A program made the translations under genes and the position numbers. 32,000 bases of DNA, taken from the NCBI RefSeq assembly GCF_000185985.2, contig NC_014909.2, positions 390,001 through 422,000 of the forward strand, written 5' to 3'. Position 1 is the stretch's first letter; every line of letters begins with the position of its first letter. The notes under the pieces were generated by a model. That model was not told where the DNA came from, ran no database searches, and worked only from the letters and a program-made list of their open reading frames with translations. The DNA comes from Candidatus Saccharimonadota bacterium. GTDB taxonomy: Bacteria > Pseudomonadota > Gammaproteobacteria > Enterobacterales > Enterobacteriaceae. Positions 3,098 through 22,933 of the stretch are shown here, piece after piece.

Positions 3098-3961
3098 TTA
3101 AATTTTGATCTTTGATAAAATTTGATGTACGGGAGAGATATAAATTCCTCGTACTACAATACTTTTAATCCAATTTGGTAAATATTTTTGACTTTGACAA
3201 GCTAAATATCTATTATAAAATTCAAAAAAAATACAAGCCCCTGTCCCTGTTAATCGAGCTGATGCATAATTAGATAAATAAAAAAAATACTTTTTTATTT
3301 CAGGAAACATGTTTTTTACAATTGGCTCTAAATCATTAGAAAATGGAGTATTCAGTAATTTTTCTACTGAACGATATGGAGAGTAATAATTAAATGCAGA
3401 TCTATACACATCAAACACCCAAGTCGTATTGATATAAATTGGAGGTATAATAATTAAATACCACCGTTCAGGTAAAAATATTGATACTAATTTTTCTCCA
3501 ATACCTTCAGAAAAAGCTGAATATCCATTAATAAATACTGGTATATCTGCCCCTAACATTAATCCTAAACGCATAAGTACTTTTTTTTCCAAAAAACATC
3601 GCCATTCTTGATTAAGAATCATCAATGTAGTAGCAGCGTTAGAAGATCCTCCACCTAAACCTGAACCTATAGGTAATTTTTTATGTAAAATAATATCTAC
3701 TCCTGGTTTCTTTTGGCACGATCTGAAACAAAATTTACGTAACAGTTTAGCAGCTTGTATAACTAAATTATTATTAGATATAATATTATTATTTGTATTA
3801 AATAGTCGAATACACCCATTTTTTGTTACAAAAAATTTCATATTGTCCCCATAATCTAACAATCGAAATAATGTTTGCAAATAGTGATAGCCATCTGAAC
3901 GACGACCGGTCACATATAAAAATAAATTTAGTTTTCCTGGAGATACCACCCATTGATGCAT
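3098..3961 (-). CDS. ispE: 4-diphosphocytidyl-2-C-methyl-D-erythritol kinase
   Basis: Has the GHMP-kinase motif PIGSGLGGGSSNAA. MHQWVVSPGKLNLFLYVTG aligns with the E. coli IspE N-terminus MRTQWPSPAKLNLFLYITG, so I place the start at ATG 3961. The track's TTG at 3976 would overlap lolB. Confidence 0.92.
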   Translation of the reverse strand: MHQWVVSPGKLNLFLYVTGRRSDGYHYLQTLFRLLDYGDNMKFFVTKNGCIRLFNTNNNIISNNNLVIQAAKLLRKFCFRSCQKKPGVDIILHKKLPIGSGLGGGSSNAATTLMILNQEWRCFLEKKVLMRLGLMLGADIPVFINGYSAFSEGIGEKLVSIFLPERWYLIIIPPIYINTTWVFDVYRSAFNYYSPYRSVEKLLNTPFSNDLEPIVKNMFPEIKKYFFYLSNYASARLTGTGACIFFEFYNRYLACQSQKYLPNWIKSIVVRGIYISPVHQILSKIKI

Positions 3962-3963
3962 TA

Positions 3964-4581
3964 TCACATACTCCAATTATTTATATGTAATTTAATGAAA
4001 TATTTTTCATAATGTATTTCTAAAATTTTAGGCAACATAGGTTTATTATTAGTAAAATAAAGTCGATAAAAAATACATATATTTTTATTATCATACAAAC
4101 AATTTACTTTAGATAAAGTACCCATACTATTTAAATAATATTTTGAGTGATAACCAGGCAAACCTAAAATCCAAGATTGTAATTGTTCTTTAAAAAAATT
4201 AGTATTTGTTAACCATACTCGAACATTGTTTTTAAATTCTTCATCTTGAAACATTAAATTTGATGTAACGTATATTATACCGTTCTTCAAGGAAATAGAA
4301 ATAATAGTTAAACCAAAAATATTAAATAATTTAATATTACAATTATTGTTATCATTCTGAGTCCAAATAAAATTTAAATACATTTTTTGTTTAGAATTAA
4401 CTTTATAAACAATATTACCTTGAATGTGATAATAAAATATTTTCGAAATTAATTGCTGATGCATACTCCAAGAATTCATCAACCTTTTTTTTTCAAAAAC
4501 AGAATCGTAATTATGTACACAAGCAGTACATATTAGCACTGCAATATTTAATAATTGAAAAAAATATATATTTTGATACAT
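3964..4581 (-). CDS. lolB: Outer-membrane lipoprotein receptor LolB
   Basis: 205 aa. Signal peptide with lipobox ..LICTAC (E. coli LTAC) and a conserved QSWILGLPG motif (E. coli RQWILGLPG). Sits in the syntenic position upstream of ispE-prs. Confidence 0.88.
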   Translation of the reverse strand: MYQNIYFFQLLNIAVLICTACVHNYDSVFEKKRLMNSWSMHQQLISKIFYYHIQGNIVYKVNSKQKMYLNFIWTQNDNNNCNIKLFNIFGLTIISISLKNGIIYVTSNLMFQDEEFKNNVRVWLTNTNFFKEQLQSWILGLPGYHSKYYLNSMGTLSKVNCLYDNKNICIFYRLYFTNNKPMLPKILEIHYEKYFIKLHINNWSM

Positions 4582-5096
4582 CAGAACAATAACTACAATA
4601 TAATAAATTATTTATCCATAATGATATAATAATACTATTTTATAGTGTTTATATTAAATATAAACAACTTAAATTAATCTTTATTTATTATATAAAAATT
4701 TAAATAATAAACAAAAATATCAACACAATATTTTATATAAATTCATAATACTTTGCGCTACGGGATTTATTTATTTAATTATTTAATTTTGAGCTAATTG
4801 ACAACTAAAATTTTACAAATATAATTGATTTAAAAAATAAAAATTATGATTATAAAATATTATATTAATAATATTGAATAAATCTAAAATATCAATACAA
4901 TTCTAATCAATAGAAATTTATCATCTTTGATAAAGAGAATAAAATAATACAAAGTACATTATTACTAACTGTTACATATATTTTGTTTTATTAGATTATG
5001 ATCATAATTTAAATAATATAAACAATATTTAATATCATTAAAATATTAAATATTATCTAATATTAGAGGCTGCATTTATAGTTAAATCAAAAATGT
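4582..5096. other. Non-coding AT-rich spacer at the position occupied by hemA in E. coli (lolB / hemA-prfA-prmC)
   Basis: 515 bp with no ORF in the track and stops in all frames. The flanking genes are the E. coli neighbours of hemA. Confidence 0.6.
4798..4825 (+). promoter_or_regulatory. Consensus sigma70 promoter (TTGACA-16 bp-TATAAT) facing prfA-prmC
   Basis: TTGACA at 4798-4803, a 16-bp spacer, then TATAAT at 4820-4825. Both hexamers are perfect. By my rough composition estimate, fewer than one such combination is expected per 32 kb on both strands. It lies about 270 bp upstream of the prfA ATG. Confidence 0.45.
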
Positions 5097-7024: not shown

Positions 7025-7084
7025 TAATTTTATAAATAAAACATAATATTGAAATAAATAATACAAAAAATAATTGGAGTGGAT

Positions 7085-7921
7085 ATGAATGATATCATGA
7101 TCAATATTGGAGATATCCAAATTTCAAATGATTTACCATTTGTGTTATTCGGAGGAATGAATGTGCTAGAAGAACATGATACAGTAATGAAAATTTGTGA
7201 ACATTATACTTCTGTTACTAGCAAGTTAAATATACCTTACATATTCAAGGCGTCTTTTGATAAATCAAATAGAACTTCTATTCATTCTTATCGAGGACCA
7301 GGATTAGAATCAGGATTGCATTTATTTCAAATATTGAAAAAAACATTTAATATCAAGCTCATGACTGATGTACATGAAATCAGTCAGGTTAAAGCTGTAT
7401 CAGAAGTAGTAGATGTAATACAATTACCAGCTTTTTTGGCACGACAAACAGATTTAATTAAAGCAATAGCACAAACTGGATCGGTAATAAATATAAAAAA
7501 ACCTCAGTATATGCACCCAACTCAAATTCAATATATAATTCAAAAGTGTCATTCTTTTAATAATTACAATACTATATTATGTGAACGAGGCACGTGTTTT
7601 GGATATGACAATTTAGTTGTAGATATACTAGGATTAAATATAATGCGTAATATTTCAGGAGGATACCCAATTCTTGTAGATGTTACACATTCTTTACAAA
7701 CCCGTACCCCATTAAGCTCTATCTCCGGAGGAAAAGGAAATCAAGTCTTTGATCTTGCTAAAGCAAGCATTGCTGTAGGTATAGCTGGGATATTCTTAGA
7801 AGCTCATCCCTGTCCTGATATAGCCAAATGTGATGGACAATCTGCGCTACCTTTAACGAAATTAGAACATTTTTTAAAACAAATCAAAGCTATTGATAAA
7901 TTAGTTAAATCTTTCAAATAA
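7085..7921 (+). CDS. kdsA: 3-deoxy-8-phosphooctulonate (KDO-8-P) synthase
   Basis: Collinear with E. coli KdsA ([57 protein letters not shown]). The ATG at 7085 gives the same N-terminal length as E. coli and follows TGGAG (7075-7079). The track's GTG at 7079 sits on that SD. Confidence 0.94.
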
Positions 7922-8713
7922 AATAAGTAAATAACTTGCAGTTTTTAAGACAATAAATTACAGGTAATAACCTATTTTTAATTAAAAATAAAAAATTCTA
8001 TTTCAGAATCCAATAATTACTTGTATATTTTCTTATAATACAACAACCTATTCTTAATATTATACTTTATGTAATACAATAACGAATAAATTGACACTGT
8101 CAGTACTTCTATTTACCTTGAAATAAGAATTACGTTCTAAATAAATTAATTATTTATATATGTACTAATTAAAATAATACTAATTATTTTTTATTTTAAT
8201 TTAAAACATACAACAACAAATATTAAATATGATATTATGAAATGTACATTTTTGCTACTATATTAGTAAGAGTTATTAGTGATGAAAAATAAGTAAATGC
8301 AAGATAACAAACTAATATCTTCATTATATTGTCATATTAAAATATACCCTGCATTTATCTAGTTTTAAATTACCTTTAGAAGGTATTACCTAATATACTT
8401 AATACATAAAAATTTTTTAAAAATAGTATGATTTTTTATAAAAAATTGTTTAGTAAAATTAGATATAATAATTTTTAAATATACAACACAATAATAATTT
8501 TAAATTTAGAGAAAAAAATTAATTTTAGACTTATTGATAATTCAATTATACTAAATAAGAATAAAATTCTAATTAAACATAATATAATATAAAAAAAGTT
8601 TATAAACTTAAACAATAAAACAGATTTCATATGTATACATTTAAAAAGCATTAAATATATAATATACCTGTTAATTTAATATAAAAGTAATCATTAAGAT
8701 AAACCTGATTATT
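7922..8713. other. 792-bp non-coding AT-rich spacer at a synteny break (kdsA | thrS), at the position where the missing thrS 5' third would lie
   Basis: No ORF of 60 aa or more in any frame. The thrS frame is closed by a TAA at 8672. I saw no GC-rich patch that would suggest a structured RNA. Confidence 0.5.
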
Positions 8714-9949
8714 ATGGATAATCACTTTCAACAATACAAAAAAAAAGATCATCGTACCCTTTCAAATCAACTAGATTTATTTCATACACAAGACGATGCT
8801 CCAGGTATGATATTTTGGCATAAAAATGGGTGGATTATTTTTCAAGAATTAAAAAAATTTATTAGAAAAAAACTTCAACAATATCAATATCAAGAAGTAA
8901 AAAGTCCAATTATGATCGATCAGGAATTATGGAAAAAAACGGGACATTGGGATAATTATTATGAACATATATTCATTACTGCTTCAGAAAATCGTACATA
9001 TTGCATTAAACCTATGAATTGTCCAGGCCATATTCAAATTTTTAATTATGGTATAAAATCATATAAAGATTTACCTCTTCGTATAGCAGAATTTGGTCAT
9101 TGTCATAGAAATGAACCTTCTGGATCACTACACGGCCTTATGAGAATAAGAGAATTTACACAAGATGATGCGCATATTTTTTGTTCTATCGAACAAATAC
9201 CAACTGAATTAAACTATTGCATAAAAATGATGTATGATGTTTATCATACATTTGGTTTTAAAAAAATAATAGTTAAATTATCCACTCGACCAATAAAAAG
9301 AATTGGGGAAGATTCAATATGGGATATTACGGAACAATGTTTAGTTCATATTCTTCAAAAAAAGAACATCGAATTTACATATCAACCTCAAGATGGAGCT
9401 TTTTACGGACCTAAAATAGAATTTATTTTACTTGATTCTTTAAAAAGAGCTTGGCAATGCGGTACAGTACAATTAGATTTTTCTTTACCTAAATTACTAA
9501 AGGCTAAATACATAGATAACAATAACAAATATCAAATTCCAGTAATGATTCATAGAGCTATTTTAGGATCTATAGAAAGATTTATTGGTTTGATCACTGA
9601 GGAATATTCAGGTTTTTTACCAACATGGTTGGCTCCTACGCAAATTGTTTTAATGAATGTTACTGATGCACAATCTTTATATGTAACTAATATAGCGAAT
9701 AGGTTAAAATTTGAGAATTTCAGAGTACAAATAGATTTAAGGAATGAAAAAATAGGATGTAAAATTCGATTACATACCATGCATAGAGTACCTTATATGA
9801 TAATATGTGGAAATTCAGAAGTAGATCACGGTACAATATCTATACGTACTTTCCGAGGTAGAAAAATTAACAATTATAATATAGATACATTTATACAAAA
9901 ATTAAAACAAGAAATTAATACTTATAATTTTAATCAATTGGAGGAATAG
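8714..9949 (+). CDS. thrS: Threonyl-tRNA synthetase, catalytic core plus anticodon-binding domain only (N-terminal TGS/editing domains absent)
   Basis: The 411-aa ORF aligns end to end with roughly residues 237-642 of E. coli ThrRS (642 aa), from KDHR..S.QLDL.H.Q..APGM.FWH to the C-terminal QLEE. The zinc ligand contexts are kept ([30 protein letters not shown]). Confidence 0.9.
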
Positions 9950-9957: not shown

Positions 9958-10554
9958 AAAATTGGAAAAAAGATGCAATCATTTAGATTGCATCGTATTA
10001 ATAGAGAAATTACTTTACATAAAACTAGATTAACCGGAGTAGATGGTAAACAAATTGGAATTGTGGATTTTAATGAAGCAATTAAACAAGCTGAATCAGT
10101 TGGATTGGATTTAGTTGAGATTAGCCCAAATTCTGATCCTCCAGTATGTAAGATCATGGATTACGGAAAGTTTTTATATGAAAAAAGTAAATCGACAAAA
10201 GAACAAAAGAAAAAACAAAAAATAATTCACGTTAAGGAAATAAAATTTCGACCTTCTACTGACGAAGGCGATTATCAAACAAAATTACGTAATATAATTA
10301 AATTTTTAAGTGAAGGCTGTAAAATTAAAATTACTTTACGTTTCCGAGGTGGAGAATTAATTCATCATCAGATTGGAATGAAAGTATTATACCGTATACG
10401 CAATGAGCTACATGAACTAGCAACAATTGAATTTTTTCCAAAAAAAATTGAAGGACGACAAATGACTATGATTTTAATTCCAAAAAAAATTATTAATAAA
10501 ACAAATTATTCTAAAAATTATAACAATGATACTAATCATGACATAATAAATTAA
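9955..10554 (+). CDS. infC: Translation initiation factor IF-3 (probable AUU start; the first ATG is at 9973)
   Basis: Collinear with E. coli IF3 ([54 protein letters not shown]). It carries about 20 extra N/K/I-rich residues at the C-terminus. Confidence 0.9.
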
Positions 10555-12382: not shown

Positions 12383-14794
12383 ATGAAATATAGCGAACTA
12401 TGGTTACGAAAATGGACCAACCCACCGGTTACTCATAATGAGCTAATAAATCAATTAACCATGGCTGGATTTAATGTAAATGAAACTCAATCTATTATTT
12501 TAAATAAGTTTTACGGGGTAGTTATTGCAGAAATTATAAACTTTAAAATACATCCAAATGTTGATAATACATGGATTATTACCATAAATAATGGTACTAA
12601 CAAATTAATCAGCATTATTTCTGATAATCACATTAATTATAGAAAAAAAATGAAGGTAGTTGTAGCAAACATAGGGGCTCTATTACCAGATGGTCAAGTG
12701 GTTACATCAAAAATTATACAAGGTATAAAATCAGAAGGTATTTTATGTACTTTTTCAACATTAGGTCTACATAATAATAGAAAAGATATTATAGAGTTAC
12801 CTGATAATGCACCTATCGGATATGATTTTTACGATTACTTAGATTTAAATGATAAAATAATTGATGTTGACATCACCCCTAACAGAGGAGATTGTTTAAG
12901 TATAATTGGACTTGCTAGAGAAATAGCTTCTATAAATAAATTACAATTAAAAAAACTAATAATCAATACTATTATTCCAACTACTCATGAAACTATTCCT
13001 ATTAGGATTGAAGAACCAAAATTTTGCCCTAAATTTTTAGGTAAAATTATAAAAAATATCAATATTAACGTTCCTACTCCTCTAAAAATACAAGAGAAAT
13101 TACGTCGCTGTGGAATTCGTTCAACAAATATAGTAGAAGATATTACAAATTATGTTGTATTAGAATTAGGACATCCAATACATATATATGATTACGAAAA
13201 AATTAATAAAAACGAAATTATTATAAGATTATCTAAACCAGGTGAAAAATTAATCTTTGATGAAAAAAATATCAATATTAAACTATTTGAAAACACATTA
13301 ATTATCTCTGATCGTAATAAGCCATTAGCTATTGCTGGGCTTGAAATAGAAAATAAATCAAATATTTCTCTAAAAACTTCTAATATATTTATACAAGTTT
13401 CTTTTTTAGATCCAACAGTAATCATAAAACAATCTAAATTGTATAATTTCCATCATTTTTATACAATGCAATATGAACGAGGAGTAGATTGCAACATATC
13501 TGAGTTAACGTTAAATTATTTTACGGAATTATTAATAAAAAATTGCAATGGACATGTAGGCCCAACTATAAAAATTATTAATAAAAAATTTATACCTAAA
13601 ATAAAAAAAATTAAATTACAACGGGCTAAATTAAATTCAATACTTGGTTTTCATGTAGAAACTCAAGACATTTCAAATATTTTAAAAAGTCTGGGTTTTA
13701 AAATAAATGTCAAAGATAATCTATGGATTGTATCGATTCCAACTTGGCGTTTTGATATCAATATAGAAGAAAATTTAATATCTGAAATTATACGTATATA
13801 TGGATATAACAAAATCCCACAAGATTCAATTAAAACTGTATTAATCCCAAATTCTCTGCATACCCAACTTTCAAATGAAACAGTTACATTATCTAAATCC
13901 AAAATTATATTAATAGATCGAGGATATCAAGAAATAATTACATATAGTTTTATAAATCCTAATATTCAAAAATTAATGAAATTTCAAGATATAACTCCAT
14001 TCACTTTAATTAATCCTATAAATCAAGAAATGTCTGTTATGAGATTATCTTTATGGCCAGGCCTTATTAAAACGATGTTATATAATCAAAATAGACAACA
14101 AAAAGATATTCGATTATTTGAAAGTGGAATGTGTTTTATCCCAAATAAAAATAATAATGACCAAGTATCTCACCAATTTATGTTATCCGGAATAAGATCC
14201 GAATTTAAAAATAACGAACATTGGGACTCAAAAATATCTTCAATAGATTTTTATGACATTAAAGGAGATGTGGAATCTGTATTAAATATGATTTATAGAC
14301 ACAATCAAATTATATTTAAAAGCTGTATTCATCCTGCACTACATCCTGGACAAAGAGCTGAAATATATTGTAATAATATACTAATAGGATATATAGGAAT
14401 GATTCATCCTAAAATACAACATTTATTAGGTTTACGTGCAAATATATTGATGTTTGAATTATTTTGGGATGCAATCCCTAAATTTACATTATCTCAAATT
14501 ACCTCTGTTTCTAAATTTCCGAAAAATCATCGAGATATTTCTTTTGTTCTACCAATATACATTTCTGCATCAGCTGTAATTGATGAATTAAAAAAACTTA
14601 ATATTAATCAATTGATTTGCATTAAATTAATTGATTTATATACAGGAAAAAAAATTCCAATTGGATTCAAAAGCTTTACTATTAAACTAACTTTTCAAAG
14701 TAATACGCATACATTCCAAGAACAAGAAATTAAAGAAATACTGAATACATGTATTATTACATTACAAAAACGTTTTCATATTATTTTAAGATAA
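12383..14794 (+). CDS. pheT: Phenylalanyl-tRNA synthetase beta subunit
   Basis: 803 aa (E. coli 795). N-terminus MKYSELWLRKW and the TPNRGDCLS.IG.AREI motif. AAGGAG SD lies 8 nt upstream. Confidence 0.95.
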   Translation: MKYSELWLRKWTNPPVTHNELINQLTMAGFNVNETQSIILNKFYGVVIAEIINFKIHPNVDNTWIITINNGTNKLISIISDNHINYRKKMKVVVANIGALLPDGQVVTSKIIQGIKSEGILCTFSTLGLHNNRKDIIELPDNAPIGYDFYDYLDLNDKIIDVDITPNRGDCLSIIGLAREIASINKLQLKKLIINTIIPTTHETIPIRIEEPKFCPKFLGKIIKNININVPTPLKIQEKLRRCGIRSTNIVEDITNYVVLELGHPIHIYDYEKINKNEIIIRLSKPGEKLIFDEKNINIKLFENTLIISDRNKPLAIAGLEIENKSNISLKTSNIFIQVSFLDPTVIIKQSKLYNFHHFYTMQYERGVDCNISELTLNYFTELLIKNCNGHVGPTIKIINKKFIPKIKKIKLQRAKLNSILGFHVETQDISNILKSLGFKINVKDNLWIVSIPTWRFDINIEENLISEIIRIYGYNKIPQDSIKTVLIPNSLHTQLSNETVTLSKSKIILIDRGYQEIITYSFINPNIQKLMKFQDITPFTLINPINQEMSVMRLSLWPGLIKTMLYNQNRQQKDIRLFESGMCFIPNKNNNDQVSHQFMLSGIRSEFKNNEHWDSKISSIDFYDIKGDVESVLNMIYRHNQIIFKSCIHPALHPGQRAEIYCNNILIGYIGMIHPKIQHLLGLRANILMFELFWDAIPKFTLSQITSVSKFPKNHRDISFVLPIYISASAVIDELKKLNINQLICIKLIDLYTGKKIPIGFKSFTIKLTFQSNTHTFQEQEIKEILNTCIITLQKRFHIILR

Positions 14795-22093: not shown

Positions 22094-22170
22094 TCCCCCT
22101 AACACAATAAGTTTATTAACTTAATAAAAGTCTCATATCCTTTTTTACATTATTAAACTAAATTATATTT

Positions 22171-22407
22171 TTATTTACGATATAAAGATATTTGATTATC
22201 AAGTCGTTTGTTAGCTCTATGTGCTTCATTTTTAGCTTGTTCTATTTCAGGTTTTAAAATATCAACATTGCTATTTAGCTGATCTAATCTAGTACTTAAT
22301 TCTTGTACTTCTGCGGATAACTCCGTTATTTTCGTAGTACTTGCACAACTTACTAAAATTAAAGTACTGAAAACTGTCACAAAATACATTAATATTTTAT
22401 TATTCAT
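22171..22407 (-). CDS. lpp: Major outer-membrane (Braun) lipoprotein
   Basis: 78 aa, the same length as E. coli Lpp. Lipobox LVSC, heptad-repeat coiled coil, RAN.RLDN and the C-terminal YRK used for peptidoglycan linkage. GGAG SD upstream. Confidence 0.93.
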   Translation of the reverse strand: MNNKILMYFVTVFSTLILVSCASTTKITELSAEVQELSTRLDQLNSNVDILKPEIEQAKNEAHRANKRLDNQISLYRK

Positions 22408-22594
22408 TTTTACACTCCAAAAAACGATTAAATTTTAATTACCTCATTTTATCTTAACCTTCATTTACCAAATAATCAAACTTTAATATTTATTAATATA
22501 AATAAAAAACGAATCATTGTAATATTAAAATTATCGATTTTTTCTTATTGTATATACTTAATATATTATACACATTATAATTTTTGACTTATTA

Positions 22595-22668
22595 TGCGTT
22601 CTAATGGATTTGAACCATTGACCTCTACCATGTCACGGTAGCGCTCTGTCCATCTGAGCTAAGAACGC
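22595..22668 (-). tRNA. tRNA-Val (anticodon GAC), no genomically encoded 3' CCA
   Basis: Hand-folded cloverleaf of 74 nt. Acceptor GCGTTCT/AGAACGC; D arm GCTC-AGATGGACA-GAGC; anticodon arm CTACC-GTGACAT-GGTAG; variable AGGTC; T arm AATGG-TTCAAAT-CCATT; discriminator A. Near-identical architecture to E. coli valV/valW. The discriminator is followed by TAA rather than CCA. Confidence 0.9.
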
Positions 22669-22933
22669 ATACAATAAAATTATTTATTTAAATCTCTTAT
22701 TACTATTAAAAACTTATTTAAGATTAACATTTAAATCTAGTAACATATCATCATGTATCATGATTAATTAAATGTAAAACAAATACAAAATAATAAATTA
22801 ATTGTATTAATAATTATATAATAAAATTGGTAATTTTTATACTCAATACAAGACAATCATAATTTTATTTATCACAAGAATCTGTTACACTGCCATATAT
22901 ATGAATTTTATTACTAAAAAGTAGTTTGAGAAT

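Follow-up and report, generated by a model that had tools for sequence, protein, structure and literature searches.

We analyzed a 32-kb stretch of contig NC_014909.2 (hereafter the window; 25.8% GC), the directly examined part of the 722-kb genome of the ant endosymbiont Candidatus Blochmannia (Blochmanniella) vafer str. BVAF, and focused on its threonyl-tRNA synthetase (ThrRS) gene thrS (BVAF_354), which the published gene list places between kdsA (BVAF_353) and infC (BVAF_355). The 411-residue product matches ADV33748.1, the annotated threonyl-tRNA synthetase of this strain, at 100% identity. BVAF_354 residues 6–411 align with residues 237–642 of E. coli K-12 ThrRS in a single gapless block (254 of 406 positions identical, 62.6%), and a phmmer search of Protein Data Bank (PDB) sequences recovers E. 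coli ThrRS 1qf6_A over the same span, again without gaps (E = 2e-188). Pfam matches are confined to tRNA-synt_2b (PF00587, E = 3.2e-55) and HGTP_anticodon (PF03129, E = 1.3e-15), with no match in the protein to PF02824 (TGS) or PF07973 (tRNA_SAD), the N-terminal domains that bring the HxxxH and DxCRGPH motifs. The NCBIfam thrS model TIGR00418 is passed at 525.6 bits (cut-off 383.65), with profile positions 166–564 of 565 matched and positions 1–165 unmatched. These results confirm that BVAF_354 is a natural, bacterial-type (class IIa) ThrRS without a cis editing domain, and they bear out a first-pass annotation of this DNA that had described a 411-residue enzyme of catalytic and anticodon-binding domains, gapless against E. 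coli and devoid of the TGS and editing domains. The same annotation had judged the zinc-site contexts intact, and the zinc ligands C334, H385 and H511 (E. coli numbering) are all identical in BVAF_354, as are R363, E365, Q381, D383, Y462, K465, C480, T482, Q484 and R520, giving 13 matches among 13 residues checked; V376 of E. coli is conservatively replaced by isoleucine. A DHR motif occupies residues 12–14, preceded by a region (residues 1–10) that we take to be an interdomain linker in the E. coli structure (Table 1).

Table 1. Features of the thrS locus and its surroundings, in window positions
Feature	Position	Strand	Remarks
kdsA (3-deoxy-8-phosphooctulonate synthase)	7079–7921	+	Conserved upstream neighbour
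kdsA–thrS spacer	7922–8713		792 bp, 16.2% GC, stops in all forward frames; sister genomes have recognisable decayed N-terminal thrS here
Best sigma-70-like site, TATACA-18-TATAAT	8634–8663	+	10 of 12 positions, about 50 bp before the ATG; candidate thrS promoter only
Last in-frame stop, TAA	8672–8674	+	No ATG, GTG or TTG from there to 8714
thrS (BVAF_354)	8714–9949	+	411-residue ThrRS without N1 (TGS) and N2 (editing); ATG start, TAG stop at 9947–9949
thrS residues 1–10	8714–8743	+	By offset equivalent to E. coli 232–241, just before the ΔN(242–642) boundary; residues 6–10 within the aligned block
PF00587, class II aminoacyl-tRNA synthetase core	8981–9607	+	Residues 90–298
Zinc-ligand codons	C103 9020–9022; H154 9173–9175; H280 9551–9553	+	
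PF03129, anticodon-binding domain	9641–9910	+	Residues 310–399
infC (initiation factor 3)	9973–10554	+	Conserved downstream neighbour, followed by rpmI, rplT, pheS and pheT
pheT	12383–14794	+	40% identity to E. coli PheT
tRNA-Val(GAC)	22594–22669	-	Sole RNA gene in the window (Rfam)

The domain content of BVAF_354 is that of E. coli ΔN-ThrRS (residues 242–642; PDB 1EVK, 1EVL, 1FYF, 1KOG and later inhibitor complexes), with nearly the same boundary. The 401-residue chain 1evk_A aligns to BVAF_354 residues 11–411, leaving the Blochmannia protein with 10 extra N-terminal residues and substantiating the first-pass comparison with an engineered ΔN enzyme of about residues 242–642. In contrast to the engineered E. 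coli construct, BVAF_354 occurs naturally, serves its organism as the sole ThrRS and is maintained by selection in this form. An assembly or annotation artefact, in which the real gene is full-length or frameshifting or transcriptional slippage restores its N-terminal half, draws on the observation that slippage can rescue Blochmannia genes with poly-A frameshifts (PMC3017870). However, the spacer upstream of thrS, which is AT-rich with stops in every frame and a TAA at 8672 closing the thrS frame, as the first-pass annotation had noted, contains 26, 41 and 19 stop codons in its three forward frames and no N-terminal ThrRS similarity in any of six frames. The sequence is confirmed by a second, resequenced B. 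vafer genotype with just 382 single-nucleotide polymorphisms and 37 indels, the longest of 15 nt (PMC3268670), and the short architecture recurs in independently sequenced Blochmannia genomes. An artefact is thus effectively refuted; neither the intact upstream N-terminal frame nor the indel error against which the first-pass annotation had cautioned was found.

A further reading holds that thrS is a decaying pseudogene and that tRNA-Thr is charged by another enzyme or by the host, as might be imagined from some extremely reduced symbionts (Portiera, Carsonella) that lack thrS entirely. We consider this reading very improbable. The 411-codon frame is open with every catalytic and zinc residue intact, the NCBIfam equivalog cut-off is passed, and the published nonsynonymous divergence (dN) between B. 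vafer and B. floridanus is lower for thrS (0.135) than for four other synthetase genes (proS 0.282, trpS 0.210, pheS 0.209 and alaS 0.213). Core identity remains 62–77% across lineages with independently truncated thrS. Tajima relative-rate tests show that truncated cores are not consistently accelerated relative to full-length cores, and a search for convergent core substitutions in the truncated forms returned nothing beyond three weakly biased columns (433, 525 and 611) that separate ten truncated from twenty full-length enzymes, none of them at a listed active-site residue. With low dN, no consistent acceleration and no convergent substitutions at the active site, the retained core is under purifying selection and appears to be a working enzyme, with no sign in its sequence of compensatory re-engineering at the active site.

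These comparisons also bear on whether fidelity could be kept by compensation at the synthetic site, with serine rejected more tightly or Ser-AMP strongly hydrolyzed before transfer. Some editing-less synthetases have gained specificity (PMC11415595), yet pre-transfer editing alone did not stop formation of Ser-tRNA-Thr by yeast mitochondrial or E. coli ThrRS (PMC4267643), the first-shell residues of BVAF_354 are all identical to those of E. coli, and truncated and full-length cores differ by only the three weakly biased columns outside the active site, with no consistent burst of rate after truncation. Compensation is in our estimate unlikely.

The first-pass annotation had proposed comparing thrS length in sister strains, and this comparison shows that the truncation is not unique to B. 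vafer. Short ThrRS proteins are encoded by B. vafer (411 residues), B. floridanus (410), B. ocreatus (423), B. pennsylvanicus, B. chromaiodes, B. herculeanus and the C. modoc symbiont (408 each) and the symbionts of Colobopsis nipponica (404) and C. obliquus (414), and full-length proteins by B. vicinus (642), Blochmannia sp. SNP (643), two Camponotus sp. symbionts (644) and the symbiont of C. nipponensis (642). SRA-derived contigs add further short forms (P0002, P0005, P0007, P0010 and P0013) and long forms (P0004, P0006, P0008, P0009, P0011, P0014, P0015 and P0017–P0020). We built neighbour-joining trees from the ThrRS core (401 sites, 200 bootstraps) and from a concatenate of five flanking genes. 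The Colobopsis pair adjoins the outgroups, the pennsylvanicus group (100%) lies within a clade that includes the full-length vicinus and nipponensis enzymes (100%), ocreatus is sister to this clade (99%), and vafer, floridanus and P0002 group with the full-length P0004, such that truncated forms occupy at least four separate positions with 96–100% bootstrap support. Since a lost domain cannot be regained, this scatter requires at least four independent truncations among the complete Blochmannia genomes, and more when P0005, P0007, P0010 and P0013 are counted. B. vafer and B. floridanus have been taken as sisters relative to B. pennsylvanicus (PMC3268670) and group at 68% in the ThrRS tree, whereas the five-gene concatenate instead joins B. 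vafer with the full-length P0004 at 99%; with the trees in conflict, the two species may share one truncation or have undergone two.

Start sites vary by lineage, yet all fall 3–31 residues upstream of the invariant DHR motif. The floridanus protein begins MKKNQKIKKYDHR, the pennsylvanicus protein MSQVPKKNDHR and the Colobopsis proteins MDIGDHR and MDARDHR, and ocreatus carries 23 residues ahead of the motif. The Blochmannia truncation boundary is essentially the ΔN(242–642) boundary. The 408-residue proteins of B. pennsylvanicus (AAZ40987.1), B. chromaiodes, B. herculeanus/camponoti and the C. modoc symbiont cluster at 90% identity with the 642-residue protein of B. vicinus, and the cores of the pennsylvanicus and vicinus enzymes are 90.3% identical. 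The truncation in the pennsylvanicus group is very recent, and B. pennsylvanicus and B. vicinus form an ideal matched pair.

Full-length Blochmannia enzymes carry their own marks of decay in the editing site, which we scored at E. coli H73, H77, Y104, K156, D180, C182 and H186. All seven residues are retained in 5 of 13 full-length enzymes, and the remaining eight are substituted at H73, H77, C182 or H186: P0006 carries H73Y, C182L and H186Q, P0009 carries H73N and C182Y, P0020 carries H73L, H77Y, C182S and H186N, P0014 carries H73Q and H186Q, and H73 is replaced in P0011, P0008, P0017 and P0018. Identity among the full-length Blochmannia enzymes is 0.53 in the N-terminal module versus 0.74 in the core. 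Across these sequences the genus presents a complete degeneration series for the editing half of ThrRS. Beyond the genus, a full-length ThrRS with the substitution H73C in its editing HxxxH motif is found in Baumannia cicadellinicola (P0059), which resembles several Blochmannia in this respect.

At the B. vafer locus, the first-pass annotation had interpreted the spacer as the missing N-terminal half decayed in place at a synteny break between kdsA and thrS, citing the closeness of 792 bp to the roughly 700 bp lost. Conservation of gene order shows that there is no such break. Seven complete Blochmannia genomes, with short and full-length thrS alike, share the order prfA–prmC–kdsA|thrS–infC–rpmI–rplT–pheS–pheT–lplA (the window, B. 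floridanus, B. vicinus, B. ocreatus and the symbionts of C. nipponensis, Colobopsis nipponica and C. obliquus), the kdsA|thrS adjacency is present also on one Logan contig, and thrS–infC–rpmI–rplT–pheS–pheT run in the same order in E. coli K-12; the adjacency is old and genus-wide. The coincidence of lengths likewise carries little weight, because relatives with a full-length thrS of 1929 bp have spacers of about 950–1300 bp anyway (952 bp in the C. nipponensis symbiont and 1303 bp in B. vicinus). The short genes are preceded by spacers of 792 bp in B. vafer, 886 bp in B. floridanus, 1290 bp in B. ocreatus, 244 bp in the Colobopsis nipponica symbiont and 408 bp in the C. obliquus symbiont.

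Decay in place itself is evident in relatives. We compared each spacer by the Smith–Waterman method with N-terminal coding DNA from three full-length Blochmannia thrS genes, using 60 dinucleotide-preserving shuffles as the control, and found colinear decayed N-terminal DNA in ocreatus (z 14–33), P0013 (z 8–51), P0005 (z 7–19), floridanus (z 7–11) and P0002 (z 2–7). A hidden Markov model (HMM) of the N-terminal 240 residues, run on six-frame translations, gave concordant matches in P0013 (E = 1e-12), P0005 (E = 1e-7), P0002 (E = 2e-3) and ocreatus, where hits in two frames (E = 6e-5 and 1e-3) mark a frameshifted remnant. The same Smith–Waterman test found no match to N-terminal thrS in the vafer spacer (z -0.1 to 1.8) or in the spacers of P0010 and the two Colobopsis symbionts, and the HMM returned E of about 1 for the vafer spacer and 0.5 for the whole window. 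Nor is the vafer spacer significantly similar to any other Blochmannia kdsA–thrS spacer (z at most 1.6). A tblastn search of the window with 107 full-length N-terminal domains, composition correction off, yielded AT-bias noise and left 7922–8713 empty bar the start of the open reading frame itself, such that the search for N-terminal domains in this interval proposed by the first-pass annotation found nothing significant. A permissive blastn comparison between spacers was discarded, its E-values being inflated by AT-richness. The proposal of decay in place thus holds for ocreatus, floridanus, P0002, P0005 and P0013, and in the vafer spacer decay is undetectable; the other short Blochmannia enzymes share the architecture and boundary of BVAF_354 but start differently, and several keep N-terminal pseudogene DNA that vafer does not.

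The vafer spacer is the largest gene-free gap of the window, followed by 4582–5096 (515 bp) and 22094–22593 (500 bp), and is about six times the median intergenic length of 134 bp in B. vafer (PMC3017870). Its length and rank in the window make decay in place plausible, and by analogy with the relatives an eroded thrS remnant would be its likeliest origin.

We next considered what becomes of Ser-tRNA-Thr in this organism. Post-transfer hydrolysis of Ser-tRNA-Thr is the task of the N2 domain (PMC4267643; PMC4787780), and constructs without N1–N2, such as Anabaena T2ΔN, are null for editing (PMC4787780). E. coli ΔN-ThrRS, as cited in PMC4267643, is dimeric and fully active in activation, and charges tRNA less efficiently. 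Pre-transfer editing at the synthetic site exists yet does not prevent Ser-tRNA-Thr formation (PMC4267643), and E. coli with ThrRS C182A shows little growth defect because Thr-to-Ser changes are mild, such errors being described as well tolerated (PMC10057733). From the ΔN constructs, the weakness of pre-transfer editing and the benign C182A phenotype, we infer elevated serine mischarging and its tolerance in B. vafer. The first-pass annotation had posed tolerance and an editing factor acting in trans as the two options. That choice was a reasonable one, and it tips towards tolerance because the published list of all B. vafer, B. floridanus and B. pennsylvanicus genes, searched by gene name, contains one thrS and none of dtd, ybaK, yeaK, proX, alaX or yihZ.

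Editing in trans would have Ser-tRNA-Thr cleared by a free-standing deacylase in the manner of crenarchaeal ThrRS-ed, whether its gene lies elsewhere in the genome or the host bacteriocyte provides it. Factors of this kind are known from archaea and from the INS and AlaX families (PMC4267643; PMC11415595), and direct inspection covered 32 kb of the genome. However, the window holds no N1–N2 homology, the gene list names no candidate, and a protein-database search with a Blochmannia N-terminal domain retrieved no stand-alone Blochmannia protein, although at its shallow depth of 284 candidates it missed even the full-length Blochmannia ThrRS. The point-inactivated editing residues of full-length Blochmannia enzymes argue further that the activity is dispensable and not relocated. 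We judge a trans-acting factor improbable, slightly more so than compensation at the synthetic site.

Most probably, BVAF_354 is a functional ThrRS without post-transfer editing whose Thr-to-Ser errors are tolerated, the end point of genus-wide relaxed selection. On this model, the single housekeeping ThrRS of B. vafer, reduced to catalytic core and anticodon-binding domain, would still activate threonine on its conserved zinc site and charge tRNA-Thr, and without N2 it would be unable to hydrolyze Ser-tRNA-Thr in cis. Raised Thr-to-Ser misincorporation would most likely be tolerated, limited perhaps only by pre-transfer hydrolysis in the catalytic site. The truncation would mark the end point of a genus-wide relaxation of selection on ThrRS proofreading, in which catalytic residues of the editing site are first substituted, the N-terminal half is then pseudogenised with translation restarting just upstream of the DHR motif, and the dead 5′ half finally erodes into an anonymous AT-rich spacer, the stage that B. 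vafer would have reached. Several points weigh against this model. Mischarging by BVAF_354 is a prediction; loss of an editing domain can bring higher active-site specificity in other synthetases (PMC11415595), and sequence comparison leaves room for it here; the genome-wide lack of a trans factor is read from gene names in a supplementary table, which a divergent or unannotated deacylase would escape; and the erosion step in B. vafer is drawn by analogy, its spacer having no thrS homology.

Other ThrRS enzymes share parts of this architecture. Yeast mitochondrial ThrRS (MST1/ScmtThrRS; PDB 3UGQ and related) is also natural, also consists of catalytic and anticodon-binding domains only and also serves a reduced, host-dependent translation system, and it mischarges serine in vitro with pre-transfer editing only (PMC4267643). 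It is distant from BVAF_354 in sequence (E = 1.6e-80, gapped) and is nuclear-encoded, imported, dedicated to a handful of proteins and co-evolved with an unusual tRNA-Thr1, whereas the Blochmannia enzyme serves 587 protein-coding genes (PMC3017870). The catalytic ThrRS of Crenarchaea (Aeropyrum pernix, PDB 3A31) likewise lacks a cis editing domain (PMC4267643; PMC4787780), but this archaeal-type enzyme (E = 1e-45) is accompanied by a separate ThrRS-ed, a partner not seen for B. vafer in the window or the gene list. Editing-defective ThrRS, leucyl-tRNA synthetase (LeuRS) and phenylalanyl-tRNA synthetase (PheRS) of Mycoplasma were reportedly described by Li et al. in 2011. These Mycoplasma enzymes present the same theme of proofreading lost in small-genome, host-restricted organisms (PMC10057733; PMC11415595), with point mutations and deletions across several synthetases (PMC10057733) and insertions in the ThrRS editing domain (PMC4787780), whereas in BVAF_354 the whole N1–N2 module is gone.

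A search of 1.84 billion cluster representatives turned up other core-only ThrRS proteins. One, from the leech symbiont Candidatus Providencia siddallii (P0159), has 410 residues, is encoded on a 755,758-bp contig and shares 60% identity and the same boundary with BVAF_354; it is an independent ΔN ThrRS outside Blochmannia. Several further representatives of about 400–430 residues (for example the P0199 cluster, on contigs of up to 705,877 bp) may be additional cases or partial gene calls. A 429-residue ThrRS labelled Sodalis praecaptivus (P0023/P0156; CAK8738612.1) starts MLQRIYGTAW within the end of N2 and shares a 90% cluster with a 702-residue member; either a Sodalis-allied symbiont has freshly truncated the gene or the start was called wrongly.

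Regulation of thrS may have changed along with its product. A promoter scan of the region found no more sites than in shuffled sequence, RNA structure in the leader (8560–8735) is not significant (z -0.19), and Rfam detected nothing in the window but tRNA-Val, so that nothing here points to a thrS operator like that of E. coli. Autoregulation of E. coli ThrRS requires its N-terminal domain. With that domain absent and no structured leader found, operator-based autoregulation of B. vafer thrS has probably been lost as well. The tRNA-Val(GAC) gene itself directly follows the 22094–22593 gap.

Among the neighbouring genes, pheT encodes a PheRS β subunit whose editing site likewise seems degenerate. 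It retains R244, N254 and H265 of E. coli PheT and carries G318I, E334Q, T354H and A356Y, in an alignment that is locally uncertain at this level of overall identity; if it is correct, PheRS proofreading may also be lost in B. vafer. In the Blochmannia-like P0005 strain (Logan contig L011 of SRR32934495; 431-residue ThrRS), no kdsA was called between prmC and thrS, a 788-bp gap there (3213–4000) holds decayed thrS N-terminal sequence, and kdsA appears to have been lost. In the P0013 strain (L012 5432–5776), infC downstream of the short thrS was called at 114 residues with IF3_C only, which may reflect a missed non-ATG (AUU-type) start or real erosion.

Much of this picture is known already: BVAF_354 is annotated, the ΔN enzyme has been characterised in vitro, editing loss in host-restricted organisms is published, and BVAF_354 reveals no new mechanism. 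Literature searches on Blochmannia together with thrS, threonyl-tRNA synthetase or editing returned no account of the truncation, the survey of Melnikov et al. 2018 lying outside this search. What is added here is that loss of ThrRS editing is recurrent and staged within one genus. We tentatively propose, with somewhat less than even confidence, that the genus amounts to a replicated natural experiment in the abandonment of proofreading. Complete genomes would record at least four independent deletions of N1–N2, a number that SRA-derived contigs would raise to as many as about nine, each ending at essentially the engineered ΔN boundary and with all intermediate stages in living lineages. If true and unreported, this would provide matched pairs, such as B. 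vicinus (642 residues, intact site) and B. pennsylvanicus (408 residues), for a direct measure of the proteome-wide cost of ThrRS editing loss in vivo, and in a stronger version removal of the dead domain would itself have been favoured, for example because it eases a burden on charging or regulation. Proofreading of Ser-tRNA-Thr by ThrRS is generally regarded as conserved quality control, and one experimental study inferred that a misacylating ThrRS is selected against as a housekeeping enzyme (PMC4787780); B. vafer, an obligate mutualist, runs its whole proteome without the editing domain, a state that its relatives have reached repeatedly. The finding lends support to the idea of statistical proteomes in host-restricted bacteria, and close species pairs with and without editing would offer a route to the real error rate in vivo and its cost.

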